DNA of 64,000 nt from an uncultured virus (IMG/VR IMGVR_UViG_3300035183_001077) (lineage: Duplodnaviria > Heunggongvirae > Uroviricota > Caudoviricetes). Under the pieces are notes generated by a model that had not been told where the DNA came from, did no database searches, and saw only the letters and a list, made by a program, of their open reading frames with translations. Shown one piece after another: positions 4,595-42,757 of this stretch (its first letter is position 1; each line of letters opens with the position of its first letter). The stretch lies in IMG/VR virus record IMGVR_UViG_3300035183_001077; one strand, 5' to 3'. The position numbers and the translations under genes are program-made.

Positions 4595-4675
4595 TGGACC
4601 CGGTGGGAATCGAACCCACGTTCCCAGGACACCGCCGGGAAACCGGCGGGCCTGGGCTCCCCCCAGGTCGGGCCC
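4595..4675 (-). ncRNA. tmRNA tRNA-like-domain-like mini RNA (Ala acceptor, no anticodon loop, no tag ORF)
   Basis: Acceptor GGGCCCG/CGGGUCC with G3:U70 and A73; T arm GUGGG-UUCGAUU-CCCAC preceded by a 3-nt AAC linker; long stem capped by UUUC instead of an anticodon loop. Confidence 0.6.
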
Positions 4676-4677
4676 AG

Positions 4678-4749
4678 ACGCGGGGGCGGGATTTGAACCC
4701 GCGACCTCCAGGTTATGAGCCTGGCGAGCTACCGCTGCTCTACCCCGCA
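4678..4749 (-). tRNA. tRNA-Met(CAT), initiator-like; CCA not encoded
   Basis: Cloverleaf UGCGGGG-UA-GAGC...GCUC-G-CCAGG-CUCAUAA-CCUGG-AGGUC-GCGGG-UUCAAAU-CCCGC-CCCCGCG; A11:U24 and a weak 1:72 pair. Confidence 0.9.
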
Positions 4750-8913: not shown

Positions 8914-9336
8914 ATGTCAGGAGGAAACCAGCCACGGGTACGTTCGTATGGGCATGTAAAGTGCAAAGAGCAGGACAACGGTTTATTAAATAAACTTAAA
9001 GCCAATTATTTCAGAGAATGGTTTGATGATTGGTGTCGTAACAATAGAAACCCATCAAGACGTAAACCCGAATTAGATCCTGATCCTCTGATTACCTGGA
9101 TTGAAGAATTGTGCCCGGATCATTATGTAAGCGAATTTGATGAAACGACTATTTTATTAAGAACAATCCGTGGCGGAATATATATGTCATTAAAAACTCC
9201 GCCGTGGATGGCTATGCTGAAATACTATGGGAAAAGGATTGGGAATAAGCTGGACGAATTAATAAATTTATACAAAAAGATTTTACCAGATTTGTGTGAG
9301 TTAGAAAAGAAGTTAGAGGAAGTAGTTAGTTGCTGA
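8914..9336 (+). CDS. Hypothetical protein
   Basis: 140-aa ORF with AAGGAG RBS. Confidence 0.7.
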   Translation: MSGGNQPRVRSYGHVKCKEQDNGLLNKLKANYFREWFDDWCRNNRNPSRRKPELDPDPLITWIEELCPDHYVSEFDETTILLRTIRGGIYMSLKTPPWMAMLKYYGKRIGNKLDELINLYKKILPDLCELEKKLEEVVSC

Positions 9337-9387
9337 GGTTTATATTTGTTTTACGTTTAATTTTTTAAAAATTAGGAAAATAATTTG

Positions 9388-9628
9388 TTGCCATGAAACT
9401 CTACTTCCTCTGGGGGGCCCGGGCTATCGGAGTCCGGTAGCCCCCCGCTGCAGCAGCAGACGTCATGGCGAGCTCCCCCGGTCAGGTTTTTCCGGCTTTT
9501 TGTCCTGGCCGGGGGAGTAGTTAAAAGAAAAGCCGGCGCCGCACGGCCTGTGCCCTGGGGGGTCGTGCGGTGGTGGGAGCCCGGGCAGACCCGTGTCCTC
9601 TAGCAATAGAGGGCACGGGGTTTTATTT
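9388..9628 (+). ncRNA. Structured GC-rich ncRNA with two pseudoknots and a terminal terminator
   Basis: Stems 9388-9396/9463-9471, 9473-9486/9504-9517 (loop 9492-9500 pairs with 9528-9536) and 9537-9548/9561-9572 (loop pairs with 9580-9587); G:U pairs only on + strand. Confidence 0.7.
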
Positions 9629-9632
9629 TTTT
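9590..9632 (+). terminator. Intrinsic terminator
   Basis: 13-bp stem with GCAA tetraloop followed by a T-rich tract. Confidence 0.8.
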
Positions 9633-9697
9633 AAATTTTGCAAAGAAAAGTTAAATTATTTTCCTAATTATTAAAAAAATTAGAAAAATAATTTAGT

Positions 9698-9892
9698 ATG
9701 GAACTCACTCCCAAAATCCGGGAGGAGGAGGTTGCCCTCCTCGTCATCCCGACCCGCTTGGAGTGGGTTACCTTGGATCCCGCGAGCGTTTCGTGCCCCG
9801 CTTGCGGGTATCCTCTGGCAGCCCGTCTCACCGACGAGGACTGGGACGGGGTCTGCCCGGACTGCAAGGCTAACTTGACAGAGATCATGTAA
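9698..9892 (+). CDS. Small zinc-ribbon protein, probably leaderless
   Basis: CPAC...CPDC; no RBS; ATG sits 6 nt after an AATAAT motif. Confidence 0.6.
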   Translation: MELTPKIREEEVALLVIPTRLEWVTLDPASVSCPACGYPLAARLTDEDWDGVCPDCKANLTEIM

Positions 9893-10612
9893 CAGGATCT
9901 CTGCAGGTGGTCTTGCAGCCGCCGATGCCGGTAAAGGCTTTCGGTAAAGGCAAGGATGCCTGAACCGAGGGCTGAAGCCGGATAAGGCGGGGGCCCACCC
10001 GGCAGCTGTCCCCTGGGTATGGCTGCCGGGAGTTCGCACAAATCCCAGGGCGGTCGGGGGAGGCCGGTTTCCGGTTCCGGCCTGTGAACCCGGCTGAAGG
10101 GCACGGCCACGCCCTTGCTGCACGGTAGCGGCCCCGGTTGGGTGGGCAGAGGCCGTGTCGAGTAAGCTGCAACCGGGCCCCACGGTGAGCCGACATAGCC
10201 GTGGGGAAACGGGTGTCGGCCCAGAGGCAGGATTGTGGGGTTTCCGCCTTAGCCCCACAGCCCTGGGTTAAAGATGGGCACAAAAAAAGGCGGCGCCTCC
10301 TGTCCCGTAGAGGCCGGGCACGGGCAGGAGGACGACTGGAAAACCCCATCCGGCCTGCCGACCCAGGGGAGGCTGGACGCCTCTTGGGTTACGGGGTCAG
10401 AGGCAGGCCACCGCGGTAGTTTGCCGCGGTCCCGGCTCCGCGCTGGGGCGGCAGCGCGGATAAATGACAGGCCGCCCTGGAGGCCTCTAACATGGAAGTG
10501 TCATAGAGGTACCTCCAGGGCCTGCGGAGACAGCCCCCGCAGGAAGGCCTGTCTAACCCGCCATCCCCCCGTCGTGAGACGCGGGGATGTGAGTCCATAG
10601 CTAGGACTCACC
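9893..10612 (+). ncRNA. Large (~700 nt) GC-rich structured RNA with tandem H-type pseudoknots
   Basis: At least four hairpins whose loops have 7-nt perfect complements just downstream; G:U pairs favour + strand; no credible ORF. Confidence 0.7.
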
Positions 10613-10674
10613 GCAATGTTTTTTAAATATTCAATCTCATTTAATTTATACATTTTACCACAAATAATTTCCTG

Positions 10675-10706
10675 TTCCTGCTGGAGCTGAGAAGCTCCGG
10701 CGGGAA
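10675..10706 (+). other. 14-bp hairpin with GAGA (GNRA) tetraloop
   Basis: TTCCTGCTGGAGCT-GAGA-AGCTCCGGCGGGAA, directly after an AAATAATT motif. Confidence 0.6.
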
Positions 10707-10760
10707 AACACTTCTTATATTTTTTTACTTTTGCCACACCTAGAACACCAAAGATCTGAC

Positions 10761-10789
10761 TTGACAACTGGCTGCCAGGTGAGTATAAT
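10761..10789 (+). promoter_or_regulatory. Consensus sigma70 promoter for the array/effector locus
   Basis: TTGACA (10761-10766), 17-nt spacer, TATAAT (10784-10789). Confidence 0.85.
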
Positions 10790-10820
10790 ACCATCCCATC
10801 ACCGATAAAAGACAACGGTA

Positions 10821-11550
10821 GGGAAGGCATAAGATAGACGCTACTAATAATAGTGGAATAAAAGGCAGAAGATAGACTTATACAAGGAAGGAGATAGACC
10901 GTCGTAGAGATGGATATAATTCTAACATTAGTAAGGATAGTGAAATAAGAGGCAGAAGATAGACTAACAAATAGACGATTCTCACGTCCAAAAATTTAAA
11001 GGAAATAACTAAATGGACTGGCCTGACCTCCATACAAACTGGCGCTGTCTATCCGCCAGGGGCTGCGACTCTCGTGTATGTATCTGCATTGGGAGCAGAT
11101 ACTTACGAAGGAGCGGCTCGAATGGCTGTAAAGTCTCTGCCTTCAGGTCAGTGCCAGTCCATATAATAAAAACAATGGCAGAGGGTAGACGATTAGGGAT
11201 TACGTAGTAAGATACTACAGGAAAGACGTAAGTGTAAAGAAGGCAGAAGATAGACAATGCACAAAAGGAGACACTATAAAAGTGAATGTAAAGAAGGCAG
11301 AGGATAGACAGTGTGTCAAAAAGTATTATAAAAAGTAAGTATAAAGAAGGCAGGAGATAGACTATAATCTCAAAGGTAAAGAAGGCAGAGGATAGACGGC
11401 AACCCTGCTGTCGGTAGAAGAGGGCAGAAGATAGACAGATGATTAGAAAGAAGGCAGATGATAGACAGAACACAACAAATGAATATAAAGAAGGCAGAAG
11501 ATAGACGGACGTGATAAACAATAAGTAAAAAAAGAAGGCAGAAGATAGAC
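10821..11550 (+). CRISPR. Atypical CRISPR-like array: 13 copies of a 19-nt repeat with irregular spacers, interrupted by a tracr-like RNA
   Basis: Consensus AAGAAGGCAGAAGATAGAC; copies end at 10839, 10877, 10899, 10964, 11190, 11255, 11309, 11362, 11397, 11436, 11466, 11506 and 11550; spacers are unique. Confidence 0.75.
11013..11162 (+). ncRNA. tracrRNA/scaffold-like RNA with split anti-repeat
   Basis: Closing stem 11013-11029/11145-11162; hairpin loop GTCTATC (11047-11053) complements repeat 3' GATAGAC; CTCTGCCTTC (11135-11144) complements repeat GAAGGCAGAG. Confidence 0.75.
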
Positions 11551-11588
11551 GGGAAGTGATCAGAAAGCAGACGGGAGGTAAGGCGCCT

Positions 11589-12881
11589 ATGGCAGATCAG
11601 CTTCTGACAGTCAGATTTCGTGTTCCCAAAACAACCAGGTGGCAACAAGCCGCTTTGGAAAAATTTGGGAACATTTATGCTCAAACTGTTGTTAATCTGT
11701 GTCGTTGGGCACAAGACGGTTTTGATTTTAATGAGATGAGTGATCCAATTGATACTTATAGAATAGCAAAACTTTTGCCTTCATGTGAGGAAGTATACGC
11801 TGATTCAAGATTGTTGCACAGTTCGTTGAAAGCGAGTTTAGTCCTCGATGCTGCTTCTAAAATAGCTGCTTACGCTAAATTATGCAAGTTATATAAAGAA
11901 GGAAAGTTAAAATACCGTCCAAAATTCTGGGCAACGGGAAGGAGAGTTCCTTCAAAGTCTTATGAAGAGTTACTTGACGATGCTAAGTATAAAATTTTTG
12001 AAACTAATCGAGAATTTCTTGAATGGCAAAGTGATTTGATGACGTATTACCGTCCGTCTCAGGAAAAGAGACCACCACTTGGTGAATGCTTATTTTTTGC
12101 CGGTGCATCAGGTCAGAGGTTTTGCCATATTATTGCTAAAAGACACAACGGTGAACTTCAGGCCGCTGCTGTTTTGTTTATTGCAGCTAAAAATACACTT
12201 CCTGGATTGACTATAGGTCGTAGCGATGGGTGGATTGATTTGACTACAGGTAAACCTTATTACATTTCTACTAAGACAGCCATTATGTTGCCTTTACTTG
12301 TACGAACAGAATATATTAAAAATTTCATAGGAATGGCTCTGGAAGGGAAAGCCAGGCCTGCTGCTTCAAAATTATTCCGCCGTCGCCGCCATGAAAAGGA
12401 GAAATGGACATGGTACGTATCTACTACATTTAGAGTGAATTGCCCGAAACCCTATGAAACCAGCACTTATATCGAAGTCGAAGCACAATATAAAGAAGAT
12501 AAGGCTCCGTCAGTAATTGTAAAACTACCTGACAAAGAAATTGAGGTATTTTCCAACGTATATGATAATCATTTGAATGCTGTAACTCAACAGCAGCATG
12601 AACGTATCCGTCAGTATCAGAAAAAATTTAGATTTAGAAATGTTACTGGAATACACAAGGAAGGTGCTGTTTGGAAAATGCATTTACATATGGCAGCTAA
12701 TTCTATAATTGATATCGCCAGAACTAACAATTATGGTATTACCTGGGTTGGTGGTGCTCCACACAGGCTTAAACGTCTACCTCACTTTATCATGCAGAAA
12801 GCTCGTCTATCTGGAGTACCGACAAAATGGGTGAAAAAGATGAAAAAATCTGGTACGGAGCAGCATGAAGAAAAAACATAA
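11589..12881 (+). CDS. Nuclease-dead TnpB/Cas12-like RNA-guided DNA-binding protein (430 aa)
   Basis: TnpB-like N terminus (TVRFRV...QQAALE..Y), WYVSTTF...P.PY, H..ANSII..A and FIMQKARLSGVPTKWV motifs; RuvC-I/II degenerate; no Zn finger or RuvC-III; GGAGGT RBS before ATG 11589. Confidence 0.7.
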   Translation: MADQLLTVRFRVPKTTRWQQAALEKFGNIYAQTVVNLCRWAQDGFDFNEMSDPIDTYRIAKLLPSCEEVYADSRLLHSSLKASLVLDAASKIAAYAKLCKLYKEGKLKYRPKFWATGRRVPSKSYEELLDDAKYKIFETNREFLEWQSDLMTYYRPSQEKRPPLGECLFFAGASGQRFCHIIAKRHNGELQAAAVLFIAAKNTLPGLTIGRSDGWIDLTTGKPYYISTKTAIMLPLLVRTEYIKNFIGMALEGKARPAASKLFRRRRHEKEKWTWYVSTTFRVNCPKPYETSTYIEVEAQYKEDKAPSVIVKLPDKEIEVFSNVYDNHLNAVTQQQHERIRQYQKKFRFRNVTGIHKEGAVWKMHLHMAANSIIDIARTNNYGITWVGGAPHRLKRLPHFIMQKARLSGVPTKWVKKMKKSGTEQHEEKT

Positions 12882-14788: not shown

Positions 14789-16156
14789 ATGACCGACCTA
14801 CCACTCATCAAGGTATCCCTTGATGAATTAAAAGTTATAAAGAAATATGAAGATTATAACGTGGGAACAAGTTCAGAAATTGTTAAAAATAACTACTTAT
14901 ATAGCGCTGGTTTGTTTGGCAATACTCACTCAGGTGCTAGTGAGCTTAGTATCTCAAAATATGACTTATCTACAAGAATGATAATCGCTATAATAACTTT
15001 TGATCTTGCACAAATATGTCCTAAACTGGCTTCCGTACTTTCCCACATACCAGGTTCGTTATACATAAAGTGGTTAGCTCCAGTCGACGGTGATGAGTTA
15101 TGGCTGATAGCAATTAGTACGGAAGTATTGTCCAATATCTTGTATACAACAAGTATTATAAAATTAAAAGCATCAGACCTTTCCATAATTGATATTTCAG
15201 AACGACAAATTGATGCCACGCCAGATAGGAACAATTTTGTTGCCATGACGTTTGGAAAAGCCAAATTAAAGCCGAAAAGTTGGTTTCATGGTATTCAATT
15301 AGAAATGAAACATATGAAATTTTGCCCATGCTACGATAGGTTAAGGACTACTTTCAATGTTCGTATTACAAATGGTCGCAGATACGTTGGTGGATTTGAT
15401 GAAGGATTGGATACTCCGGTATGGTTTGCCATAAGCTGCTGTAAGTATTATGACACATGCCTGTATGCTAGTATGGAGAATAGTAATTGTTATTTTGGCT
15501 GGGGAAAGAAGTGGTCTAGAGGCGGTACTAATATAGATAGATTATATACCGTCAAATTTAATGAAAACTTCTCCGTAGTTGAATTAAAACATGTTGACAT
15601 AGATGGTAAAATTATTAATGCATACCCTATATGGGATGTAAACTATTCTTTTTCCCATAACACTTTGATTTGTGTTAAAATGTACATTCCCAGATCTGGT
15701 ATAGAAATACTGGTCTTCGATGATGACGGTACTTTCGTTTATCAAATACCGATAAAGTTTATTATTGGTACGGACCATACTGGTACGTTCACTTGTATCT
15801 TTTCCGATGATCCAGTTAATAATTTTATATACTTCACTTGTTATAAAGAATATATATCACATGCTGTTTTAGGATATATAAGTTTTGACCACGATAGCAA
15901 AACAATTACAGTTCATGTTACCAATCCAATAAATACTGGTTATAACGAGTCAGATTATTTGGAGTGGGTCGATACTTACATACATCCTGAATATCTTTGC
16001 CTTACAGGCAAGTTCACTTATAAATCGCTTGACATACTGCTATTTCCCGTACAATGGTTGCACGATAATGTAATTAAAAGCGAAACTTTTGCAGCAGAAA
16101 GGTATGAATTTGATAAAAAGGAAATATATGAAGTACAGAAGAGCTGTGTATGCTGA
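14789..16156 (+). CDS. Tandem paralogue family member 1
   Basis: Shares SKYDL, MTFGKAKLKP, GRxYVGGF, PVWFAIxCC, LGYIxFDHD and FPVQWLHDN blocks with its neighbours. Confidence 0.85.
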   Translation: MTDLPLIKVSLDELKVIKKYEDYNVGTSSEIVKNNYLYSAGLFGNTHSGASELSISKYDLSTRMIIAIITFDLAQICPKLASVLSHIPGSLYIKWLAPVDGDELWLIAISTEVLSNILYTTSIIKLKASDLSIIDISERQIDATPDRNNFVAMTFGKAKLKPKSWFHGIQLEMKHMKFCPCYDRLRTTFNVRITNGRRYVGGFDEGLDTPVWFAISCCKYYDTCLYASMENSNCYFGWGKKWSRGGTNIDRLYTVKFNENFSVVELKHVDIDGKIINAYPIWDVNYSFSHNTLICVKMYIPRSGIEILVFDDDGTFVYQIPIKFIIGTDHTGTFTCIFSDDPVNNFIYFTCYKEYISHAVLGYISFDHDSKTITVHVTNPINTGYNESDYLEWVDTYIHPEYLCLTGKFTYKSLDILLFPVQWLHDNVIKSETFAAERYEFDKKEIYEVQKSCVC

Positions 16157-16177
16157 GAAATGAAACAAGGATAAACT

Positions 16178-17584
16178 ATGACGGATATACCTACTATCAG
16201 TATATCCCTCGGTGAATTAGGAATGGAAAGAGATTATCGCATCTACAATAAATGGCTCGGATCGTCAGAAATTATTGAAGGTAATTATTTATATGGTGCT
16301 GTTTTGTTCTATGATACGAACACTGGGAAAGGCAAATTTGTTATTTCAAAGTACGATTTATTTACAAAACTATTGGTGGCTATAAACGATTTTGATCCTG
16401 CACAAATATTTCCTAAATTAATGTTTGCTGCAGGTTGTGTCATACCAAGACTATTAACTCTAAATTGGCTTGTTTCAACTGATGACGAGTTAAGATTGAT
16501 AATATCAGCTGCATATACAACTTCATATGTAACAAACAACATTTTATGTATAAGTAGTGTTATAAGATTAAAAGCGTCAGACCTTTCCGTGATCGATGCT
16601 TCGGAACGGCAAATTGATATTACACCAAGCAATGGGAAATTCATTAACATGACTCTTGGCAAGACTAGATTAAAACCGGCAAGCTGGTTTAAAGATATTC
16701 GCCTGACAGTCGATAACATCGAATTATATCCGTGTCCTGATCAATTAAAAGCTACTTTCAACCTTACAACACTAAAAGGTCGCACGTTCGTTGGTGGGTA
16801 TAATGAGGAATTAAATGGTACGCCAGTATGGTTTGTTACCGATTGTTGCAACTATTATAGAGCGTGCGCGTATTTATATGCGAGCCCGGAGCTTAAGGGG
16901 TATTACTTTGGTTACAGAAGGGAACAACATAAGGACAGTGGTACAATCAGATTATATACCGTTGAATTTGATAAAGACTCCTCTACAGCCGGATTAAAAT
17001 ATATCGACATTGTTGATACTAGTATTCACTTAGACAGCAACTGGAATAGAAATTATCCACTTATAGATTGCAACAGCATGATTTTCGTAGGAAAATTTTC
17101 TTTCCAAGAATTGATAATACTAACCTTTTTTGATAAAGGTACAATAGTTTATAAAATACCAATAAAATACATTATTGGTGCCGAGACTGATCCTATTACT
17201 GCTTGGCATATCGACCGAATTACCTGGAATTTTTATTATGATTCGTTCAACTATTATATATATTTTGTGTGTTACGACGCTGAAGAATCCTTTGCTGTTT
17301 TAGGGTACATAAAACTTGATCATGACAGCAAAACGGCTAAGGTTTACATTACTAATAAGATAAATACCGGGCAATATAGGCCAGGCCATCAGAAGTTGCT
17401 CGACACATACATATGCCCAGAGTATCTTTATCTTACTCACAGTTATGCCCATAACAATTCGCTTATCTTAACGTTATTTCCTGTACAATGGTTGCACGAT
17501 AATATAGTTAGGAGTGAAACTTTCACAGCAGAAAAATATGAATTTGATAAAAAGAAAACGTATGAAGTGCTGAGGACCGAATGA
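16178..17584 (+). CDS. Tandem paralogue family member 2
   Basis: Same conserved blocks. Confidence 0.85.
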   Translation: MTDIPTISISLGELGMERDYRIYNKWLGSSEIIEGNYLYGAVLFYDTNTGKGKFVISKYDLFTKLLVAINDFDPAQIFPKLMFAAGCVIPRLLTLNWLVSTDDELRLIISAAYTTSYVTNNILCISSVIRLKASDLSVIDASERQIDITPSNGKFINMTLGKTRLKPASWFKDIRLTVDNIELYPCPDQLKATFNLTTLKGRTFVGGYNEELNGTPVWFVTDCCNYYRACAYLYASPELKGYYFGYRREQHKDSGTIRLYTVEFDKDSSTAGLKYIDIVDTSIHLDSNWNRNYPLIDCNSMIFVGKFSFQELIILTFFDKGTIVYKIPIKYIIGAETDPITAWHIDRITWNFYYDSFNYYIYFVCYDAEESFAVLGYIKLDHDSKTAKVYITNKINTGQYRPGHQKLLDTYICPEYLYLTHSYAHNNSLILTLFPVQWLHDNIVRSETFTAEKYEFDKKKTYEVLRTE

Positions 17585-18982
17585 ATGACAGATATAAGCC
17601 CGCCAAAAGTCATTGTATCTCTTGATGAATTGGGAATGGTAAAAAGTTACAGAGATGACAGTATGTTGGACGGGTCAAAAATTGTCAAAGGCAATTACTT
17701 ATATAGTGCCCATCTGTGCTATAACGAGAATACTGATAAAGTAGAGCTTGTTGTTTCAAAATACGATTTATCAGTAAAATTGCTGGTGTCTCTTGCAGTC
17801 ATTGATCTTACACAAAAATATGAATCATTACTTAAATGTTATGAACTAGGCGTAGTGAATGTAAAGTGGCTTACTCCAAGTCCTAATGATAGATTAGAGC
17901 TGATTATTACTTTTGCACGTAGAGGACAAATGTCAAATCCAACGTGTAATTTGTTGTGTGTAACAAAAATTGTAAAATTAAAAGAATCAGATTTTTCTGT
18001 GATTGATATATTAGAACGCCAGATTGATGTTGTACCGAATAAAGGAACGTTCATTAGCATGACCTTTGGTAAGGCCAAGTTAAAACCGGAAAATTGGTTT
18101 ACAGCTATTAGGCTCGCGCCAAGCGATCTGGTGGTGCATCCATCTCTTGACCAATTCCGAGCCACCTTCAATGTTAGAATGTCAAATGGTCGTACATATG
18201 TGGGCGGATTCAATGAAGGAGTTGGTAATCCAGTATGGTTTGCCATAAGTTGTTGTAATTACTTCGACACACGCTTATATGCAAATCTAACGTGCAATAA
18301 CCATTATTTTGGTTGGGGAATGAAGCATTATAAAGGTAACAATATAGGCAGATTGTACGCCGTTGATTTTGGTGAAAGTTTTTCTACTGTTGAATTGAAA
18401 TATACTGATACACGTGATAATAGTGATTTTATACCTTCTAGGTGGCTCAGATGTACGAATTACTCACTTTCATGTCGTCGCAGTATTGTTTGTGAAGAAG
18501 CATGTCCCATTAGCAAACCTACAACAATAATGGTTTTTTCCGACAAAGATGTAGCTGTTTATAAAATACCAACCAAAGATATTGCCGGTGATAATCATGC
18601 TAAAAGTATTTTGTGGAATTTTTACCATGATCCGTCCAACGATTTTATATACTTTGTTTGTTATGAATTCAGTGGACCAAACGCGGTTTTAGGGTATATA
18701 AATTTCGATCATGACAATAAAACAGCTAATGTTTATTATACCAATTTAATAGAAGCAAATGTTAATTATAGTAGTAGGCTAGGATATAAGGCTGTGGTTA
18801 ACAGATACATGTGCCCAGAATATATTTATTTGACAAACGATTTCATACAAGATTCGCGTTGCATAATATTGTTTCCCGTACAATGGTTATATGATAATAT
18901 AGCTGAAAGTAAAACTATTGCAGCAGAAGTATATGAATTCGATAAAAAAGAAGTATATAAAGCTCAGGAAATCCGTGCATAA
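17585..18982 (+). CDS. Tandem paralogue family member 3
   Basis: Same conserved blocks. Confidence 0.85.
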   Translation: MTDISPPKVIVSLDELGMVKSYRDDSMLDGSKIVKGNYLYSAHLCYNENTDKVELVVSKYDLSVKLLVSLAVIDLTQKYESLLKCYELGVVNVKWLTPSPNDRLELIITFARRGQMSNPTCNLLCVTKIVKLKESDFSVIDILERQIDVVPNKGTFISMTFGKAKLKPENWFTAIRLAPSDLVVHPSLDQFRATFNVRMSNGRTYVGGFNEGVGNPVWFAISCCNYFDTRLYANLTCNNHYFGWGMKHYKGNNIGRLYAVDFGESFSTVELKYTDTRDNSDFIPSRWLRCTNYSLSCRRSIVCEEACPISKPTTIMVFSDKDVAVYKIPTKDIAGDNHAKSILWNFYHDPSNDFIYFVCYEFSGPNAVLGYINFDHDNKTANVYYTNLIEANVNYSSRLGYKAVVNRYMCPEYIYLTNDFIQDSRCIILFPVQWLYDNIAESKTIAAEVYEFDKKEVYKAQEIRA

Positions 18983-18984
18983 GC

Positions 18985-20385
18985 ATGAGCAGCAGCAAAA
19001 CTATAACAGATCTACCGCTTGTAGAAGTATCTCTCGATGAATTAGGAGTAATGAAAAGTTGTGATGATTGTAATCGTAAAGAAGAATCAAGAATTATCAA
19101 AGGCAATTATGTATATAACGCTAGTTTTATTTATAATAACAAACATGGTGAGAGTGAGATCATTGTTTCAAAATACGACTTATCAATGAAATTGTTGTTA
19201 GCTGTTACGACTGTTAACCTTACACAAGTATTTGCTAGATTACTGTGCTGTAATGTCCTGTATACGTACCGTCTGGACTGGCTAGTTCCAGATACTGACA
19301 ATGAGTTGTGGCTGATAATACGCGTTCTAGATTATAAAGAACATTTACTTTCGGGCGCAATAAGCATTGTAAAACTAAAAGCATCAGACCTTTCCATAAT
19401 AGACATTTCAGAAAAGCAGGTTGATATTTCTCCAAACAGGGGAAATTTTGTTCCTATGACGTTCGGTAAAGCCAAATTAAAGCCAGAAAAGTGGTTCGAT
19501 AAGATTAAATTGTCATCGAGATATATGATACTGTACCCGTGTCATGATCAATTAATAGCTGTTTTTGATGTTAAGCTTTCAAATGGTCGCACATACGTTG
19601 GCGGTTTTAATGAGGGATCTGGTACTCCAGTATGGTTTGCTATTAATTGCTGTAATTATTTCGATACGTATATACATGCCAGTACGAAGCATAATAATTA
19701 TTATTTTGGCTGGGGAGGGGAAAAACGGTATGGAAGTAATGATACAGTCAGATTATACGCTGTTGAATTTAATGAAGAATTTTCCACAGCAGAATTAAAA
19801 TACCTTGATGCTGGTGATGATCTCACTATTGTCTTATCTCCTTATTGGCAGCGCGATGCTTATGTATTTACGCAGTGTAATAGCTTGATTTACGCTCAAT
19901 CACGTTTCGGTAGAGAGGGAATCGACGTAGTCATGATAACTTTTTGTGATAAAGATATAGTTGCTTATAAAATAACAGTAAAACGTGATATTGTTGATTT
20001 TGATAACAATAATCGAATTTATTGGAATTTTTATCATGATCCGTTTAAAGATTTTATATATTTTATATGTTGTGATCGCCTCGGCGGTTCAGGTATCGTT
20101 TTAGGATATATAAGCTTCGACCACGACAATAAAACGGTTACATTCCATACTACCAATACAATGTATACCAATAGTTCTGCACCCGATTACAGTGGACGGA
20201 TCAGAGCTTTTATGCACCCTGAGTATCTTTATTTCAGATCAGATCTCAAACAAGGTTCATATAATATAGCATTACTTCCTGCACAGTGGCTGCATGATAA
20301 TATAATTAAAAGTACAACAGTTACGGCGGAAAAATATGGATTCGATAAAAAGGAAACATATGAAGCTCAGGAAATCCGTGCATAA
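18985..20385 (+). CDS. Tandem paralogue family member 4
   Basis: Same conserved blocks; highly similar to member 5 at DNA level. Confidence 0.85.
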   Translation: MSSSKTITDLPLVEVSLDELGVMKSCDDCNRKEESRIIKGNYVYNASFIYNNKHGESEIIVSKYDLSMKLLLAVTTVNLTQVFARLLCCNVLYTYRLDWLVPDTDNELWLIIRVLDYKEHLLSGAISIVKLKASDLSIIDISEKQVDISPNRGNFVPMTFGKAKLKPEKWFDKIKLSSRYMILYPCHDQLIAVFDVKLSNGRTYVGGFNEGSGTPVWFAINCCNYFDTYIHASTKHNNYYFGWGGEKRYGSNDTVRLYAVEFNEEFSTAELKYLDAGDDLTIVLSPYWQRDAYVFTQCNSLIYAQSRFGREGIDVVMITFCDKDIVAYKITVKRDIVDFDNNNRIYWNFYHDPFKDFIYFICCDRLGGSGIVLGYISFDHDNKTVTFHTTNTMYTNSSAPDYSGRIRAFMHPEYLYFRSDLKQGSYNIALLPAQWLHDNIIKSTTVTAEKYGFDKKETYEAQEIRA

Positions 20386-20387
20386 GC

Positions 20388-21800
20388 ATGAGCAGCAGCA
20401 AAACTATGACAGATCTACCGCTTGTAGAAGTATCTCTCGATGAATCAGGAGTAGTGAAAGATCGTGATGGTTATTATAATTATCAGAACGAATCGAGAAT
20501 TATCAAAGGCAATTACTTATATAGCGCCAGTTTTGCTTATGATAACAAACATGGTGAGAGTGAGATCATTGTTTCAAAATACGACTTATCAATGAAATTG
20601 TTGTTAGCTGTTACAACCGTTAACCTTACACAAGTATTTGCTAGATTACTGTGCTGTGAGGTTCTGTATTCATACCATCTGAGCTGGTTGGTTCCAGATA
20701 ACAGTGATGAGTTGTGGTTGACAGCACGCATTCTAAATTACAAAACAGATTTAATTTCTGGTGTAGCGATCATCGTAAAATTAAAAGAGTCAGACCTTTC
20801 CGTAATCGACATTCCAGAAAAGCAGGTTGATATTTCTCCAAATAAGGGAAATTTCGTTCCTATGACGTTCGGTAAAGCCAAATTAGAGCCGGAAAAGTGG
20901 TTCGATAAGATTAAATTATCATTGCTAAATATGAGGCTGTACCCGTGGCATGATCAGTTGATAGCTGTTTTTGACGCTAAGCTTCTAAATGGCCGCGTAT
21001 ACGTTGGCGGTTTTAATGATGGATCTGGTACTCCAGTCTGGTTTGCTATTAACTGCTGTAATTATTTCGATATGTATATCCATGCCAGTACGAAAAATAA
21101 TAATTATTATTTTGGCTGGGGAGGAGAAAAGCTGTATGAAAGTAATGATACAGTCAGGTTATACGCTGTTGAATTTAACGAAAACTTTTCCACAGCAGAA
21201 TTAAAATATCTTGATGCTGGTGATGATCTCACTGTTGCCATATCTCCTCAATGGATACGCAGTAATCATGTACTTCCGCAATGCAATAGTTTAATTTGCA
21301 CTCGATCACGTTTTGGTAAAGAAAACGACGCAGTTATGATAACTTTTTGTGATAAAGATATAGTTGCTTATAAAATAAAAATGGAACGTGATATTGTTGA
21401 TTTCGTTAACGGTAATGAAGTTGGTTGGAATTTTTATCATGATCCATTTAAAGGTTTTATATATTTCATATGTCGTGAGTATATCAGCGGTTATCGTTAC
21501 AATAAAGGTGGAAAAAAGCCAGGTTTCGTTTTAGGATATATAAGCTTCGACCACGACAATAAAACGGTTACATTCCATACTACCAATACAATGTATACCG
21601 GTAGTTCTGGACCCGGTTACAATATATTGATTGAATCTTTCATGCATCCTGAGTACCTTTATTTCAGATCAGATCACAAACAAGGTTCACTTAATATAGC
21701 ATTGTTTCCTACACAATGGCTGCATGATAACATAGTTAAAAGTACAACAGTTACGGCGGAAAGATATGAATTCGATAAAAAAAAAAGGTGTATGAAATAA
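20388..21800 (+). CDS. Tandem paralogue family member 5
   Basis: Same conserved blocks. Confidence 0.85.
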   Translation: MSSSKTMTDLPLVEVSLDESGVVKDRDGYYNYQNESRIIKGNYLYSASFAYDNKHGESEIIVSKYDLSMKLLLAVTTVNLTQVFARLLCCEVLYSYHLSWLVPDNSDELWLTARILNYKTDLISGVAIIVKLKESDLSVIDIPEKQVDISPNKGNFVPMTFGKAKLEPEKWFDKIKLSLLNMRLYPWHDQLIAVFDAKLLNGRVYVGGFNDGSGTPVWFAINCCNYFDMYIHASTKNNNYYFGWGGEKLYESNDTVRLYAVEFNENFSTAELKYLDAGDDLTVAISPQWIRSNHVLPQCNSLICTRSRFGKENDAVMITFCDKDIVAYKIKMERDIVDFVNGNEVGWNFYHDPFKGFIYFICREYISGYRYNKGGKKPGFVLGYISFDHDNKTVTFHTTNTMYTGSSGPGYNILIESFMHPEYLYFRSDHKQGSLNIALFPTQWLHDNIVKSTTVTAERYEFDKKKRCMK

Positions 21801-21810
21801 AAGGAACTGC

Positions 21811-23247
21811 ATGACAAAAATAAAAAAGCAGGTAAACTCTGATAATCTTATCAGAATCAATTTTAATGCTGACGCCTATTTTCTTAAACAAGGGTTGAAG
21901 TCTAAATTTACAGAATATTGTATCAATGATAACTACATATACGGTGCTTCCCTAATAGTTGACTCTCAAAAGTCAAAAACGTGTTTTTTGATTTCCAAAT
22001 TTGATATACAATTAGGACTGATTGTTGGGGTAAATGAAATAGATCTTATAACCATTGTTCCGGCTTCTAAAGACATGGTTGATCGTATACTTGCCAGCCA
22101 CACTATCTACGATTTCTATTTGAAGGATGACCACTTAATAATTGATATGCTTTTTGTTTTACCAGAAAATATTTTCAACAGGTATATGTTATCAATTGAT
22201 GTAAACACATTACAACTGGTATCGGTTGATCGCGGGCGTGGAAATCTTGCCGAATGCAATCGTGCAGTCTTACGGTTTACTAGACTTAAAGATAATAAAC
22301 TTAAGATAATTGACGAAACTAAACAAACCAGTTTTGATATATTCAAGAGTATTACCACAGAACAGATTGGCAAACGTTTTATATGGATAAATACGGGTGG
22401 TATTCAAGTGTTCACTAGTGGATATGCAGACAAGCATTATCAATACCTTTATAAGAAAGATCCTGATAACAACAATTATTGCTGGGAACATAATCAGATT
22501 TCATTTATCAGCCATCGGCGTCCATTATTTATTGTACCAGCACAGCTCAATCATGCTGGTATAGGTAAAGCTGAAATTATATATTGCGATCACGATCTTG
22601 GCTGTATGACATTATTCAGGCAGCATGAAAGTATACGTGGAGAAGTATTTTATATTGAGCAAACTCCTGATTTGACGAACGAAATTAAGAAAATGAGCGA
22701 TTATTATTATTCGGCAAGATGTAATATTAAATACTGCTGTGATCACATGGAAAACGAATTTATGTTGTATGGTCAACATGTCTTAAAACATGTTGGACAT
22801 CGCGGCGAGTTGCTCATATATTCATTTGATGCTATTACAGCTGCAAATGATGTATTTCATATTTCGCACGAAGATGAAGACGGTACAATTTATATGTATT
22901 ACGTTTGTAAGTTTGATGGAGGCCGTTCCTATTATATAGGTATACCAGCATTCCTAAAAATCAGGGATTTAAATATAGCATGTTATAAAACTGATTTCTG
23001 CTACTACGTTTGTGATCGCATTAAGACCCCTTACGGCTTATATCACTACCCTATACCTTATGCAAATTGCGATAAGTATAGCAAAAATCTTGTATGTGTG
23101 ATTTATGATAGATCGAGCGATTACCATTTTACTGCCATATCCAAGGAAGAAGTTGAGAAGAGAGTAGTGGAAGTACAGGAACTAAAACCAGTATGTTTTT
23201 CCTGGAAATATTATGGTGATATAAAGATGGAGAAAGTACAGTGTTAG
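21811..23247 (+). CDS. Divergent member of the paralogue family
   Basis: NYIYGASL...FLISKFDI..GLIVGVNEIDL matches the family N-terminal block. Confidence 0.7.
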   Translation: MTKIKKQVNSDNLIRINFNADAYFLKQGLKSKFTEYCINDNYIYGASLIVDSQKSKTCFLISKFDIQLGLIVGVNEIDLITIVPASKDMVDRILASHTIYDFYLKDDHLIIDMLFVLPENIFNRYMLSIDVNTLQLVSVDRGRGNLAECNRAVLRFTRLKDNKLKIIDETKQTSFDIFKSITTEQIGKRFIWINTGGIQVFTSGYADKHYQYLYKKDPDNNNYCWEHNQISFISHRRPLFIVPAQLNHAGIGKAEIIYCDHDLGCMTLFRQHESIRGEVFYIEQTPDLTNEIKKMSDYYYSARCNIKYCCDHMENEFMLYGQHVLKHVGHRGELLIYSFDAITAANDVFHISHEDEDGTIYMYYVCKFDGGRSYYIGIPAFLKIRDLNIACYKTDFCYYVCDRIKTPYGLYHYPIPYANCDKYSKNLVCVIYDRSSDYHFTAISKEEVEKRVVEVQELKPVCFSWKYYGDIKMEKVQC

Positions 23248-24533
23248 TATCACCAACACCAATAGTTATGAAGGATTCCCCTGGTCATTTTCTGTATCCT
23301 AAATTTTGTACCATACATGACGGTAAGTTATTACTTTGTTATGTTACAACAACAAAAGACCCGCTTAGTGCAGGGTCAACACTTTTAGATCCGTCTTGTT
23401 TAATATCAATTATTATTTATGATATCAATTATAAAATACCAGTTATTCTTTATAACGATGAGTTTGGTCATCCTGATTTTTCGGTTTATTGTGAGCATCC
23501 TACCGAAAACGAATATTATTTTTGGAAAGATAAATTTCTAGTTGGAAAACACCTTATTACATATTTGGTTGGGTATTGTCTGGATTTAGAAAAAGGAACA
23601 TTAGGTTGTGTGCAATCACGATGGCCATTTGAACCTGTCAAGCTACCATCATATGTTAATGAATTTAAGATTGCTGGTAAATCAGACCGTTTTCTTATTG
23701 GTTATCAATCAATGTATTGGCAACACGAAAATTATTTTGTATTTATTGATAAAGAGCAGCAGTCAGGTAAAGCTTTTAAATTGCAAGATCATAGCAGTCA
23801 AGCTCATTACTTTTCATTATGCCATTGTATTGTTGATGGTATGAACTCGAAAATTTATTACACGCAATTTGAGTTACCAGAAGTTGTTGCTCGTTCCGGT
23901 ATTCATGCCGGACACGCTAATTGTTTATATATGGATGGGACAATTGAAACGATATGTTCGGTATATACTAAACCAGATAGAAATAAATTAATATTACAAT
24001 GCCCTAAAATAGTAAATGAAAGATTTTTGATTTTCGAGGCTATTGAAGCAAAACTTACTGTTACCAATTATAGTCAACGATATGTTTTTGTAATAGATCT
24101 GCTAAAAAATAAATATGTAATTGTTAAATCCTGGGAATGTTTGCGTTATTTCATAAAGGAAGTGAATAAAGATCAAACGGTTATATATCTATGCCGTGTG
24201 TGGGAAGATGAAAAGAAAAGACCTTATTTTGAACTAATAAAAACAATAAATATATCTGGCGATAACATTATAGTATATACTTCACGACAAGATTTTGAAA
24301 ATACTATTACAGAGGATACGTCATTTTTGTCTCTATATACAGATTTAACCTTAGTAACAAACCAGTTCATTATTTTATTCCCAGCAAGAGAGGACTATTT
24401 TGGTTTTTCTTCTCCAACTATTTCAGCCATTTTTATCCCAATTAATGAACTGGAACTTCCAGATATACCGGATAACATAGTCGTTGATTATCTTCCTGCT
24501 AACAGAAATATTACGATACCGGATAACCTGTAA
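23241..24533 (+). CDS. Hypothetical beta-rich protein, possible distant family member
   Basis: 430-aa ORF, GTG start with GGAG RBS. Confidence 0.65.
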   Translation: MLVSPTPIVMKDSPGHFLYPKFCTIHDGKLLLCYVTTTKDPLSAGSTLLDPSCLISIIIYDINYKIPVILYNDEFGHPDFSVYCEHPTENEYYFWKDKFLVGKHLITYLVGYCLDLEKGTLGCVQSRWPFEPVKLPSYVNEFKIAGKSDRFLIGYQSMYWQHENYFVFIDKEQQSGKAFKLQDHSSQAHYFSLCHCIVDGMNSKIYYTQFELPEVVARSGIHAGHANCLYMDGTIETICSVYTKPDRNKLILQCPKIVNERFLIFEAIEAKLTVTNYSQRYVFVIDLLKNKYVIVKSWECLRYFIKEVNKDQTVIYLCRVWEDEKKRPYFELIKTINISGDNIIVYTSRQDFENTITEDTSFLSLYTDLTLVTNQFIILFPAREDYFGFSSPTISAIFIPINELELPDIPDNIVVDYLPANRNITIPDNL

Positions 24534-41950: not shown

Positions 41951-42757
41951 ATGCCAGAAAAAAGCATCAGAGTGAATAGTTTTGTATCGAATCTCATTAA
42001 AAATATTAAATTGGCCGCCACCGAGCCGCCAAATTACCGTCCCGCAGAAAACCCAGGCGTCAAATGTGGTACTTGTAAGCATTATGACAATGCTACTACT
42101 CTATGCACCAAATATGATACTGGTGTAAATGAAGGTTATGTTTGTGATGCGTTTGAACGTAAAAAAGTTAAATTAAGAGCTGTTACTGAAAGTAATGTAG
42201 AAAAACCTGACCTGTTATCTAAAGTAAGTGCAGTTTTATCTCAAGCTCAAGCAGGAATGATGCCGCCTCCTCCACCTGGTGGCGGTATGCCGCCAGGCGG
42301 TGCTCCGCCAATGGATCCCATGATGATGGCAGCTATGGGTGGCGGTGGAATGCCTCCTCCTGGTGGTGGAGGAATGCCCCCGCCTCCTCCAGGTGGAGGT
42401 TCTCCGTTAGACATGGCTTTAGCTGCACCTCCGCCGCCTGGCGGTGGTGGTGATATGGGTATGGGTGGTGGTATGCCTCCACCACCTTCTTCTACAGAAG
42501 AGCCTGGAAAAGAAGAAAAACCCAAGGAAGAAGAAAAATCAGAAAAGTCAACCGACGAAAAATTAGATGAATTGATTTCAAAACTTGACAGATTAATTGA
42601 ACTATTAGAAAAGAAAATGGCAGTTGATGAAAAAGGACCTGCCTCTACAGTTACTGAAGAAAAAACAGAAACTTCTCATGAACCAGTTGTTAAAGAAAAA
42701 ACTTCCAGTGCAAGCGATGATGTATTGAATCAAATTTTACAATTACTGAACGACTAG
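41951..42757 (+). CDS. Protein with a 4-Cys (HiPIP-like) domain, poly-Pro/Gly/Met linker and acidic coiled coil
   Basis: CGTCKHY...C...VCD; MPPPPPGGG repeats; start reassigned to ATG 41951. Confidence 0.65.
   Translation: MPEKSIRVNSFVSNLIKNIKLAATEPPNYRPAENPGVKCGTCKHYDNATTLCTKYDTGVNEGYVCDAFERKKVKLRAVTESNVEKPDLLSKVSAVLSQAQAGMMPPPPPGGGMPPGGAPPMDPMMMAAMGGGGMPPPGGGGMPPPPPGGGSPLDMALAAPPPPGGGGDMGMGGGMPPPPSSTEEPGKEEKPKEEEKSEKSTDEKLDELISKLDRLIELLEKKMAVDEKGPASTVTEEKTETSHEPVVKEKTSSASDDVLNQILQLLND

Follow-up and report, generated by a model that had tools for sequence, protein, structure and literature searches.

A probable new large structured RNA with a chain of H-type pseudoknots, following a small zinc-ribbon gene in a heat-loving jumbo phage

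An uncultured jumbo phage of the Caudoviricetes (IMG/VR record IMGVR_UViG_3300035183_001077) probably encodes a new large structured RNA. In the window, by which we mean the whole 64,000-nt stretch of DNA that was analyzed, positions 9893-10612 are 67% G+C while the phage contig overall is 36.7% G+C, which agrees with the sharp GC island in an AT-rich genome reported in the first-pass annotation. The best overall explanation, to which we give a probability of roughly 50%, is that this region is the ~720-nt structured 3' domain of a + strand unit that includes a zinc-ribbon gene. A phage transcription unit would then run on the + strand from ~9695 to ~10625 (~0.9 kb), opening with a gene for a 64-aa zinc-ribbon protein and continuing into a long untranslated 3' domain of ~720 nt and ~16 helices, in whose predicted fold H-type pseudoknots built on one plan, four of them or perhaps five, occur together with a kink-turn hairpin, a three-way junction and a hairpin with a GNRA cap. 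That the region gives rise to a functional structured RNA is likely. A new large noncoding RNA had been proposed for this region before; the structure and the lack of a family match speak for that proposal, but the RNA is probably not a free-standing gene. It probably shares the transcript of the zinc-ribbon ORF, which would open the unit and leave the RNA domain to make up the remaining four-fifths on the 3' side.

The composition of the locus changes abruptly. In 200-nt windows, the G+C content was 0.615-0.70 across 9700-10599 and 0.31-0.45 in the flanks, and at a threshold of at least 55% G+C the island spans 9369-10635. The stretch was present in two DNA sequencing runs, both of them microbial-mat metagenomes and either possibly its source; no RNA run was among the runs listed with it, and no sequence differences were seen between the contigs of the two runs inside 9300-11600. 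The habitat of the phage is hot and the phage is heat loving. Stable RNAs in such a habitat require G-C pairs, which accounts for the GC richness of the RNA domain; every other recognizable RNA gene of the phage is GC-rich too (the tRNAs, the tracr-like element and element A), with the tRNAs at 67-73% G+C within the 36.7% G+C genome. Directly 5' of the unit lies an AT-rich palindrome (9653-9694, without strand) with two copies of AAAAATTAGRAAAATAATTT, which may act as a promoter or operator. A third copy at 9367-9386 stands directly 5' of the neighboring GC-rich element, and these are the only three matches in the 64 kb, all at this locus (0.37 expected). The same AT-rich 20-mer was found at 17 loci in IMG/VR, none of which had a related GC island. 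No recognizable sigma-70 promoter was found 5' of 9698, nor was a separate promoter signal found within 9893-10612, except for one weak 9/12 match. Compared with the rest of the window, including element A, the big RNA displayed no paralogy beyond the AT-rich motif.

The unit opens with an ORF of 64 codons (9698-9892, + strand) that starts with ATG, encodes an acidic zinc ribbon (CPAC...CPDC) and is a real gene. Its G+C content by codon position is 0.60/0.46/0.77, and a 67-aa relative (P0005, carried by a 1,628-nt contig) is 75% identical to its product, with indels in frame. The zinc-ribbon Pfam matches of the product were weak, all of them under the cut-off, and its AlphaFold model was poor (pLDDT 62) and unsuitable for a fold search. 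The ORF is GC-rich and strongly folded itself (z = -4.9). A 25-bp hairpin (9862-9889/9893-9918, + strand, mean pair probability 0.95) holds the TAA stop of the ORF in its apical loop and bridges the ORF and the RNA domain; the structure does not begin at 9893, where its start had first been placed. The whole unit (9695-10630) folds with z = -9.4. At its far end, a terminal 7-bp hairpin followed by CGCAAUG and U6 (10590-10625, + strand) is the probable 3' end. Because 7 to 9 nt separate the stem from the U run, it is not a textbook terminator, and it was not listed by a terminator scan.

Both the strength of the folding and the recurring H-type topology exceed chance expectation by a wide margin. 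The minimum free energy (MFE) of 9893-10612 was -405.1 kcal/mol on the + strand (z = -12.34, 20 shuffles) and -383.3 kcal/mol on the minus strand (z = -6.75, 20 shuffles), and dinucleotide shuffles of equal composition folded 63 kcal/mol worse than the + strand. G.U pairs account for 20 of the 232 centroid pairs. The strand asymmetry in folding, together with the G.U pairs, argues for selection at the RNA level and not at the DNA level, and the + strand is the one that had been favored before.

Four hairpins on the + strand each have a loop 7-mer with a perfect downstream complement, just as first described. Module 1 (9998-10050) has an 11-bp S1 helix with two G.U pairs (9998-10008/10020-10030, probability 0.98), and its loop CCCTGGG (10011-10017) is complementary to 10044-10050. 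Module 2 (10178-10220) has a 9-bp S1 with one G.U pair (10178-10186/10198-10206, probability 0.97), the loop GCCGACA (10189-10195) with its complement at 10214-10220, an L3 of AAACGGG and an S2a that is unpaired with a probability of 0.93. In module 3 (10233-10293), S1 is 9 bp long with two G.U pairs (10233-10241/10252-10260), the loop CCGCCTT (10244-10250) matches 10287-10293 and the 26-nt L3 has an A run at its end. Module 4 (10296-10356) combines a 12-bp S1 with one bulged U (10296-10308/10320-10331, probability 0.68-0.70) and the loop AGGCCGG (10311-10317), complementary to 10350-10356. Common to all four is a geometry with an L1 of 2 nt, an S2 of 7 bp, an L2 of 1 to 2 nt and an A-rich L3 of 7 to 26 nt. 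With loop-to-downstream pairing and sterically possible loop lengths, the four modules are predicted H-type pseudoknots. A possible fifth (10437-10477, + strand) would form from the hairpin 10437-10444/10453-10460, whose loop GGGCGGC can pair with 10471-10477, and competes with a helix of the three-way junction.

We compared the number of such loops with that in shuffled sequences. With the real hairpin loops fixed, 5 of 10 had a perfect 7-mer partner at most 60 nt downstream, while the maximum in 3000 dinucleotide shuffles was three (6 shuffles); for the four reported loops, 0 of 3000 shuffles reached four partners. The repeated topology that the first-pass annotation had noted is borne out by these counts and by the shared geometry. 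When the count was based on MFE structures, the + strand had two such loops and the minus strand none, and none of 150 shuffles had any. Five of eight A runs fall within or border on the L3 loops, whose combined length is 64 of the 720 nt. At 65 C, the S1 helices were still predicted to form (probabilities 0.60-0.91). Under nested folding, most S2b segments were paired elsewhere (unpaired probability 0.06-0.35). Besides its local partner, the loop 7-mer has a distant perfect complement in three of the four modules (10011-10017 with 10362, 10244-10250 with 9984 and 10311-10317 with 10077), which makes pairings other than the local pseudoknots possible; the loop of module 1 has a 10-nt complement at 10361-10370.

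Between and around the modules, the + strand is predicted to form further domains. D1 (9919-9990) is a hairpin of four tiers that contains two internal loops of UAAAG (pair probabilities 0.95-0.99). It is followed, beyond module 1, by a kink-turn-type hairpin (10052-10095) with a C stem (10062-10067/10077-10082), an NC stem (10052-10058/10089-10095), the bulge U10083 G10084 U10085 and the pairs G10086.A10061 and A10087.G10060. At the level of sequence only, this hairpin fits the kink-turn consensus, in which a C stem is followed by a bulge of 3 nt, tandem sheared G.A and A.G pairs and an NC stem. The S2 sequence of module 4 is identical to that of its C stem. D2 (10100-10159) is a branched hairpin whose closing helix is 14 bp long (10100-10114/10144-10159); ACGGCC (10103-10108) and GGCCGT (10151-10156), earlier suggested to be a kissing pair, are actually nested within this helix. 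D3 (10352-10430) consists of a bipartite hairpin (10352-10409) and a 9-bp hairpin (10410-10430). The multibranch domain that had been described at 10466-10553 is a three-way junction (pair probabilities 0.94-1.00), and an 11-bp hairpin with a GUGA (GNRA-type) tetraloop lies at 10562-10589 (probability 0.96).

The RNA region is kept in a related phage, where its conservation, as read from back-translated proteins, is mosaic. The comparison used two natural variants of a spurious minus-strand ORF over the RNA region (P0032 and P0033), and the divergence figures are minima. P0032, on a contig of 8,461 nt, matches this ORF at an E value of 7e-15; P0033 lies on a 43,259-nt contig, and a relative of the neighboring TnpB-like gene lies on a contig of equal length (43,259 nt). 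The minimum divergence was 2% for the kink-turn hairpin (1 forced change in 46 nt), 14% for D1 and PK2 (at least 14% for D1, 9919-9990, by itself), 28-43% with indels elsewhere and 22% for the zinc-ribbon ORF; in the relative, D2 lacked 24 nt, had gained 13 residues (39 nt) and showed 28% forced changes. Because the kink-turn hairpin is more conserved than the ORF, it appears to be under a constraint of its own. As for the pseudoknots, the determined positions of module 1 S2 were unchanged in the relative, module 2 S2 had one compensatory change (10193-10216, A-U to G-C), module 3 S2b was not alignable, and in modules 1 and 3 a number of S1 pairs appeared broken where the alignment is unreliable. 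Back-translation of P0033 onto the 164 nested MFE pairs gave 3 compensatory and 21 broken pairs, no better than the shifted-partner controls on the same pairs (0-4 compensatory, 14-24 broken). A hairpin was possible in the degenerate sequence of the relative, but 43 of 500 shuffles did equally well, and this search was too permissive. For the spurious ORF at 10501-10830, a protein search yielded no relative, and the comparison thus stops short of the 3' 40% of the RNA.

Searches of wider collections returned little. In IMG/VR, no relative came up in scans with four flanking proteins or with the spurious-ORF alignment A3, the zinc-ribbon ORF yielded a single weak 28-residue match (L001), and an exact 17-mer of the kink-turn strand had no match. 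The TnpB-like alignment matched only a 1,066-nt contig among metagenomes (L002), which is without the RNA, and the zinc-ribbon alignment matched a genome collection only through a spurious 12-residue stretch (L003). Neither a blastn search of plasmids and of GenBank records of phages nor a tblastn search of phages with the 430-aa protein gave a match.

By the family searches made here, the phage RNA belongs to no described RNA family. At gathering score, Rfam 15 returned a single tRNA over the whole window and no known class for the RNA; at E <= 10, searches of 9300-11100 and 9860-10640 returned no large-RNA family (GOLLD, ROOL, OLE, raiA, HEARO). This is in line with the initial view that the RNA is neither GOLLD nor ROOL, and no description of it was found in full-text searches of the literature. 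The best subthreshold Rfam match was Pyrobac-1 (RF01722; 32.6 bits, gathering score 40; E values 0.0013 and 0.00056), with 10041-10103 aligning to all 60 model positions and having an asymmetric internal loop, GA opposite UGUGAA, in common with the model. In Pyrobaculum archaea, the Pyrobac-1 hairpin stands on its own, whereas here the likeness concerns one module of a 720-nt phage RNA. The phage that carries this Pyrobac-1-like module shows bacterial-type signals. GOLLD, ROOL and OLE are large ornate RNAs of bacteria and phages that have Rfam families and have been studied by cryo-EM (PMC12286853). The phage RNA resembles them in size (~600-800 nt) and in very dense structure with pseudoknots and multistem junctions; GOLLD and ROOL are also phage borne, and OLE occurs in extremophiles. 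What sets it apart from all three is its place immediately after a small protein gene, its string of nearly identical H-type pseudoknot modules and its occurrence in the jumbo phage of a thermophile.

Other known RNAs were tried and rejected. Genes for tmRNA (SsrA) occur in huge phages, and the order of a short ORF, a stop-codon hairpin and a row of H-type pseudoknots recalls them; the phage RNA differs in being without a tRNA-like domain, a T arm or a CCA end. An ARAGORN tmRNA search gave 0 genes, the Rfam tmRNA models had no match at E <= 10, and the ORF is an ATG-started 64-aa zinc-ribbon protein that is conserved as a protein and is not a degradation tag. An ARAGORN call of tRNA-Arg at 10359-10452 is not credible: the sequence is 94 nt long, is mismatched in both the acceptor stem and the anticodon stem and has no GTTCRA T loop, and RF00005 had no match over it at E <= 10. 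A group II intron was likewise set aside, with no match to its domain models (Intron_gpII and group-II-D1D4, E <= 10) and no interrupted host gene. Dual-function RNAs (RNAIII/hld of Staphylococcus aureus, SgrS/SgrT, SR1/SR1P) join a small protein and a large structured body with a role of its own in one transcript, as is proposed for the phage unit. RNAIII, SgrS and SR1 act as antisense RNAs via C-rich or seed loops and are 200 to 500 nt long with simple hairpins, whereas the body of the phage RNA is pseudoknotted and its cotranscription with the ORF is only proposed.

The big RNA lies ~1 kb upstream of a TnpB/Cas12f-like gene and adjoins a repeat array with 13 same-strand copies of GGCAGARGATAGAC at 10826-11550. 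A degenerate CRISPR-like array accompanied by a tracr-like RNA is the better explanation of these repeats, given their homology to the regular arrays in records of the gene's relatives (L004-L006) and a conserved anti-repeat. The tracr-like element is a separate 155-nt RNA (11010-11165) that bears the anti-repeat and is conserved by the effector gene in relatives. Guide scaffolds of the TnpB/Cas12f family contain pseudoknots; we rejected the big RNA as tracrRNA or omega RNA of the TnpB-like protein, since it is without an anti-repeat (best duplex with the array repeat -11.8 kcal/mol, shuffle mean -12.7) and was absent beside the effector in relatives (0 of 3 records, L004-L006). Neither the inter-repeat sequences of the array (nothing significant) nor the spacers of L004-L006 (no match) matched the window. 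Cas12r of Thermus phages, a 564-aa effector without tracrRNA (10.64898/2026.04.20.719267), is not obviously the same as the neighboring miniature TnpB-like protein. Separating the big RNA from the tracr-like RNA avoids its misannotation as a guide scaffold.

We weighed several other explanations of the region. It is unlikely, on balance, that the tail is a cis-acting 3' UTR which only stabilizes or regulates the zinc-ribbon mRNA in the heat, its pseudoknots blocking exonucleases. The position of the tail directly after the ORF, the stop codon in the hairpin loop, the want of a separate promoter signal other than the weak match and the retention of both ORF and tail in relatives are consistent with such a role; however, one terminal hairpin is usually enough against an exonuclease, and 720 nt with ~16 helices, a kink-turn and a three-way junction exceed that need, while the kink-turn hairpin diverged by 2% against 22% for the ORF. 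We regard as quite improbable a GC-rich foreign import (a decayed gene or moron) without RNA function, whose folding would be a by-product of composition. The GC3 of the zinc-ribbon ORF, 0.77 against ~0.30 in phage genes, would fit a recent GC-rich import, as would the bracketing of the island by copies of one AT-rich 20-mer and the finding of the TnpB-like gene's relatives in viral contigs of 57.7% G+C, but shuffles that keep the composition fold far worse and lack the pseudoknot pattern, the other recognizable RNA genes of the phage are GC-rich as well, a related phage retains the region in mosaic form, and no match was present in the records of the GC-rich relatives.

It is very improbable that the region acts at the DNA level, whether as a replication origin, a packaging site, an R-loop primer region or an element of a similar kind. 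The surroundings invite the idea, being a gene-poor 2.2 kb (9337-11588) of GC-rich and AT-rich blocks with one small ORF only and 13 iteron-like same-strand repeats, and a transcript of 9893-10612, with 262 G and 218 C on the + strand, would be rich in G; against the idea stand the CRISPR-like reading of the repeats and the strand asymmetry and G.U pairs of the fold. Automatic gene callers place a minus-strand protein-coding gene at 9885-10349 or 9680-10258, and the minus strand does have open frames there, one of 154 aa and one of 192 aa, the former and its relatives being recorded as "hypothetical protein." This reading is scarcely credible: there is no codon periodicity (G+C 0.62/0.69/0.69 by position), the minus-strand ORF sequences are low in complexity and rich in R, P, G and A, and no Pfam match better than E 0.02 was found for eight ORFs (69-192 aa, 9664-11521; six over the island). 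The three + frames are also closed, with 7 to 10 stops in each. Furthermore, this phage has stops where its relative reads through, indels span 8 to 13 residues, and P0032 and P0033 differ by a frameshift, which argues for noncoding sequence.

If the region is the structured 3' domain of the zinc-ribbon unit, the RNA would be stable, resistant to heat and nucleases and able to work as a protein-binding scaffold, although we hold this ribonucleoprotein mechanism in particular only tentatively. The nearly invariant kink-turn hairpin might be the docking site for a protein, and the pseudoknot modules, stiffened by their A-rich L3 loops, would hold the body together. The coencoded zinc-ribbon protein is a candidate partner, its binding being purely conjectural, and the transcript would have a dual function as mRNA and structural RNA. 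By analogy with the homo-oligomers of ROOL, GOLLD and OLE, the RNA might also self-assemble into a heat-stable particle, which we consider improbable. Since three loops have both local and distant partners and the S2 of module 4 equals the kink-turn C stem, such contacts could form intermolecularly. If so, domain swapping would build a multimeric RNA or RNA-protein body, with the zinc-ribbon protein as a partner, and this body might be a decoy or a compartment during infection.

To our knowledge, very few RNAs of more than 500 nt with complex tertiary architecture exist outside ribosomes, introns and RNase P, and each new large class (GOLLD, ROOL, OLE) has been structurally surprising. The high G+C content and predicted heat stability of the candidate make it attractive for structure work. 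It would add an example from a thermophilic phage, in which regular pseudoknot modules and a kink-turn are combined with a tiny zinc-ribbon protein.

The first-pass annotation had described a sharp GC island in an AT-rich genome, and the G+C content in 200-nt windows bore this out (0.615 to 0.70 over positions 9700-10599 versus 0.31 to 0.45 around them; 36.7% for the whole window). The plus strand of 9893-10630 folded with a minimum free energy (MFE) of -405.1 kcal/mol (z = -12.3), and the minus strand folded with -383.3 kcal/mol (z = -6.8). The plus-strand centroid structure contained 232 pairs, 20 of them G.U; the GC-rich region 9893-10612 (~720 nt) is here called the big RNA.

All four hairpins reported earlier, with their loop 7-mers and downstream complements, were present as described, and the topology does repeat: modules 1 to 4 (9998-10050, 10178-10220, 10233-10293, and 10296-10356) are H-type pseudoknots of one design, with a first loop of 2 nt, a loop/downstream stem (S2) of 7 bp, and a second loop of 1 to 2 nt. 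Their third loops are A-rich; these loops cover 64 of the 720 nt, and five of the eight runs of at least three A's in the big RNA lie in or at them. Keeping the real hairpin loops fixed, we found that 5 of 10 loops had a perfect 7-mer complement no more than 60 nt downstream, versus a maximum of 3 in 3,000 dinucleotide shuffles; in an MFE-based count, none of 150 shuffles had any loop 7-mer partner. The hairpin stems (S1) had pair probabilities of 0.68 to 0.98 at 37°C and 0.60 to 0.91 at 65°C, and the downstream segments of S2 paired preferentially elsewhere in nested folding. Three of the four loop 7-mers also have a second, distant perfect complement (10 nt, 10009-10018 with 10361-10370; 8 nt, 10244-10251 with 9983-9990; 7 nt, 10311-10317 with 10077-10083), and a 16-mer around the 3' strand of the K-turn hairpin recurs with 81% identity at 10349-10364. 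Alternative folding, contacts between molecules, or internal duplication could each explain these complements and the recurrence.

Around the modules, the plus-strand centroid structure comprises a four-tier hairpin (D1, 9919-9990), a hairpin with a kink-turn-type internal loop (10052-10095), a branched variable domain (D2, 10100-10159), three hairpins (10352-10460), the multibranch domain claimed near 10466-10553, which resolved into a three-way junction at those positions, a GUGA-capped hairpin 3' of it, and a terminal hairpin followed by 7 to 9 nt and U6. With its C stem, UGU bulge, and tandem G.A, the internal loop of hairpin 10052-10095 fits the consensus of a kink-turn. Two earlier claims had to be revised: the supposed kissing pair belongs to the helix that closes a nested domain, and the start of the structure lies not at 9893 but inside the upstream open reading frame (ORF); a 25-bp hairpin carries the ORF's stop codon in its loop. 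Farther downstream, a degenerate copy of the AT-rich 20-mer motif described below (10640-10670) precedes a short GC-rich hairpin that is capped by a GAGA tetraloop and followed by a T-rich tail (10671-10726, plus strand). This hairpin may be the actual terminator of the big RNA or, alternatively, a third mini unit. No known Rfam class was recognized: the sole signal, and the only part of the big RNA with one, was a Pyrobac-1 match at the K-turn hairpin, below threshold (32.6 bits versus a gathering score of 40). An ARAGORN "tRNA-Arg" call at 10359-10452 (94 nt) was rejected on its mismatched stems, missing T loop, and lack of a match to the tRNA covariance model.

The ORF at 9698-9892, directly 5' of the big RNA, is a real gene. 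Its G+C content by codon position is 0.60/0.46/0.77, it encodes a CPAC...CPDC zinc ribbon (Pfam and NCBIfam matches weak and below cutoff), and an exhaustive search of 1.84 billion representatives returned a 67-aa relative with 75% identity and in-frame indels. The 720 nt after it are noncoding, because each plus frame holds 7 to 10 stops and codon periodicity is absent, none of eight ORFs tested across 9664-11521 (six overlapping the island) had a family match, and the ORF that gene callers annotated over the island on the minus strand exists in a relative as two natural variants, one frameshifted against the other, and is interrupted by stops in the window where the relative continues open. 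Although that ORF was annotated, a minus-strand protein gene is thus scarcely credible.

Two relatives of the spurious minus-strand ORF, P0032 (E value, 7e-15) and P0033, reveal that the big RNA region is retained in a related phage. P0033 and P0011, a relative (~87% identical) of the TnpB-like protein encoded downstream, each lie on a 43,259-nt contig, which suggests that region and gene are syntenic there. Divergence, given as lower bounds from back-translating P0033 and covering the ORF's 3' half and the 5' 60% of the big RNA, was mosaic: 2% (1/46) in the K-turn hairpin, 14% in D1 and in module 2, 22% in the 3' half of the ORF, 28% in D2 along with 24- and 39-nt indels, and 32 to 43% in modules 1, 3, and 4. 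In S2 of module 2, the pair A10193-U10216 is replaced by G-C, as read from two amino acid changes in the spurious ORF; we estimate that this single event would arise by chance ~1 time in 10. Across 164 nested MFE pairs, the back-translation pairing test did not outperform shifted controls, and in modules 1 and 3 several of the S1 pairs appear broken under the protein alignment; we read both as a limit of the method rather than as counterevidence, but neither supports the structure.

Upstream lies a second GC-rich element, probably an independent gene for a small RNA (element A, 9387-9632, plus strand, ~230 nt). It has an MFE of -136 kcal/mol and, over 9387-9620, z = -5.6 on the plus strand (-3.8 on the minus strand), and a strong 13-bp terminator followed by a T run forms its end. 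Its 3' end recurs in variant form on a 151-nt contig in run X1. The AT-rich 20-mer AAAAATTAGRAAAATAATTT directly precedes both units, with copies at 9367-9386, 9653-9672 (minus strand), and 9675-9694 and none elsewhere in the 64 kb; the latter two form a palindrome upstream of the zinc-ribbon ORF and big RNA. The 20-mer could serve RNA genes of the phage as a common promoter or operator; its 17 exact matches in IMG/VR resemble chance.

Downstream of the big RNA lies a miniature CRISPR-like locus (10761-12881), with counterparts in viral contigs L004, L005, and L006 (2453-6062 in L006). Behind a perfect sigma-70 promoter come 13 copies of GGCAGARGATAGAC at irregular spacing, among which sits a 155-nt GC-rich element (11010-11165), and then a 430-aa ORF with a TnpB/Cas12f-like fold (ESM Atlas, TM 0.58 to 0.70), no profile match in Pfam, PHROG, or NCBIfam, and no RuvC D/E/D or zinc finger obvious by eye. 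The three contigs (57.7% G+C) carry 50%-identical relatives of this protein, each followed by a homologous noncoding piece and by ~30 regularly arrayed repeats (period, ~66 nt) that end in GGGAGATAGAC. We identify the 155-nt element as the tracr-like RNA of this locus, because GTCTATC, the complement of the repeat end, is invariant in it and its relatives and its duplex with the repeat reaches -18.7 kcal/mol. The locus may represent a new subtype, either type V or TnpB-derived, and does not obviously correspond to Cas12r of Thermus phages (564 aa, tracr-less; 10.64898/2026.04.20.719267). The big RNA was rejected as the guide scaffold of this system, because it lacks repeat complementarity (-11.8 kcal/mol versus a shuffle mean of -12.7) and is absent from the records of the three relatives.

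Other products of the window include an RNA polymerase beta/beta' fusion protein that bears an intein (42743-48346, minus strand, 1,867 aa; intein-splicing match at residues 965 to 1303), a second polymerase subunit, a DnaB-type helicase, and many family-less proteins. The RNA polymerase is only ~25% identical to those of known jumbo phages. Seven tandem ORFs of 430 to 478 aa (14789-24533, plus strand) resemble a paralogous gene array; the two tested (14789-16156 and 16178-17584) had no family match. The stretch occurs in only two public runs, both DNA and labeled microbial mat metagenome, and the sequence may itself derive from both. In AT-rich thermophiles, stable RNAs show up as GC islands, and with the phage tRNA genes at 67 to 73% G+C, this points to a hot habitat. 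Directly downstream of tRNA-Met (4677-4749, minus strand), a second tRNA-like gene (His, gtg; 4597-4670, minus strand; 73% G+C) appeared at a relaxed ARAGORN threshold, whereas tRNA-Met alone was reported with default settings and by Rfam at its gathering score.

The best reading is a functional structured RNA, at a probability of roughly three in four, on the combined grounds of excess folding stability, strand asymmetry, the repeated pseudoknot design, the lack of coding signal, and conservation that is mosaic but leaves the K-turn hairpin almost unchanged. Set beside that evidence, GC-rich imported DNA without RNA function is improbable, despite the island's composition, and an element acting at the DNA level is more improbable still. 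Because the big RNA directly follows a real small gene, with a hairpin bridging both, we think that it is the structural body of a putative dual-function transcript. The same position would also suit a purely cis-acting 3' untranslated region with a stabilizing role, which we consider unlikely. For the structured RNA, we tentatively favor, by inference, a heat-stable protein-binding scaffold for which the K-turn would provide the docking site and the zinc-ribbon protein might be a partner.

The earlier proposal of a new large noncoding RNA therefore stands as to structure and the lack of a known family, but is amended in that the RNA is probably one part of a transcript with a real ORF. As in tmRNA, a row of pseudoknots comes after an ORF, but the tRNA-like domain is missing; with dual-function RNAs such as RNAIII, the big RNA has only the layout in common. 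It works most like GOLLD, ROOL, and OLE, although it matches none of their models, and we rate it as probably a new class among large structured RNAs of phages, within the known kind of large ornate RNAs.
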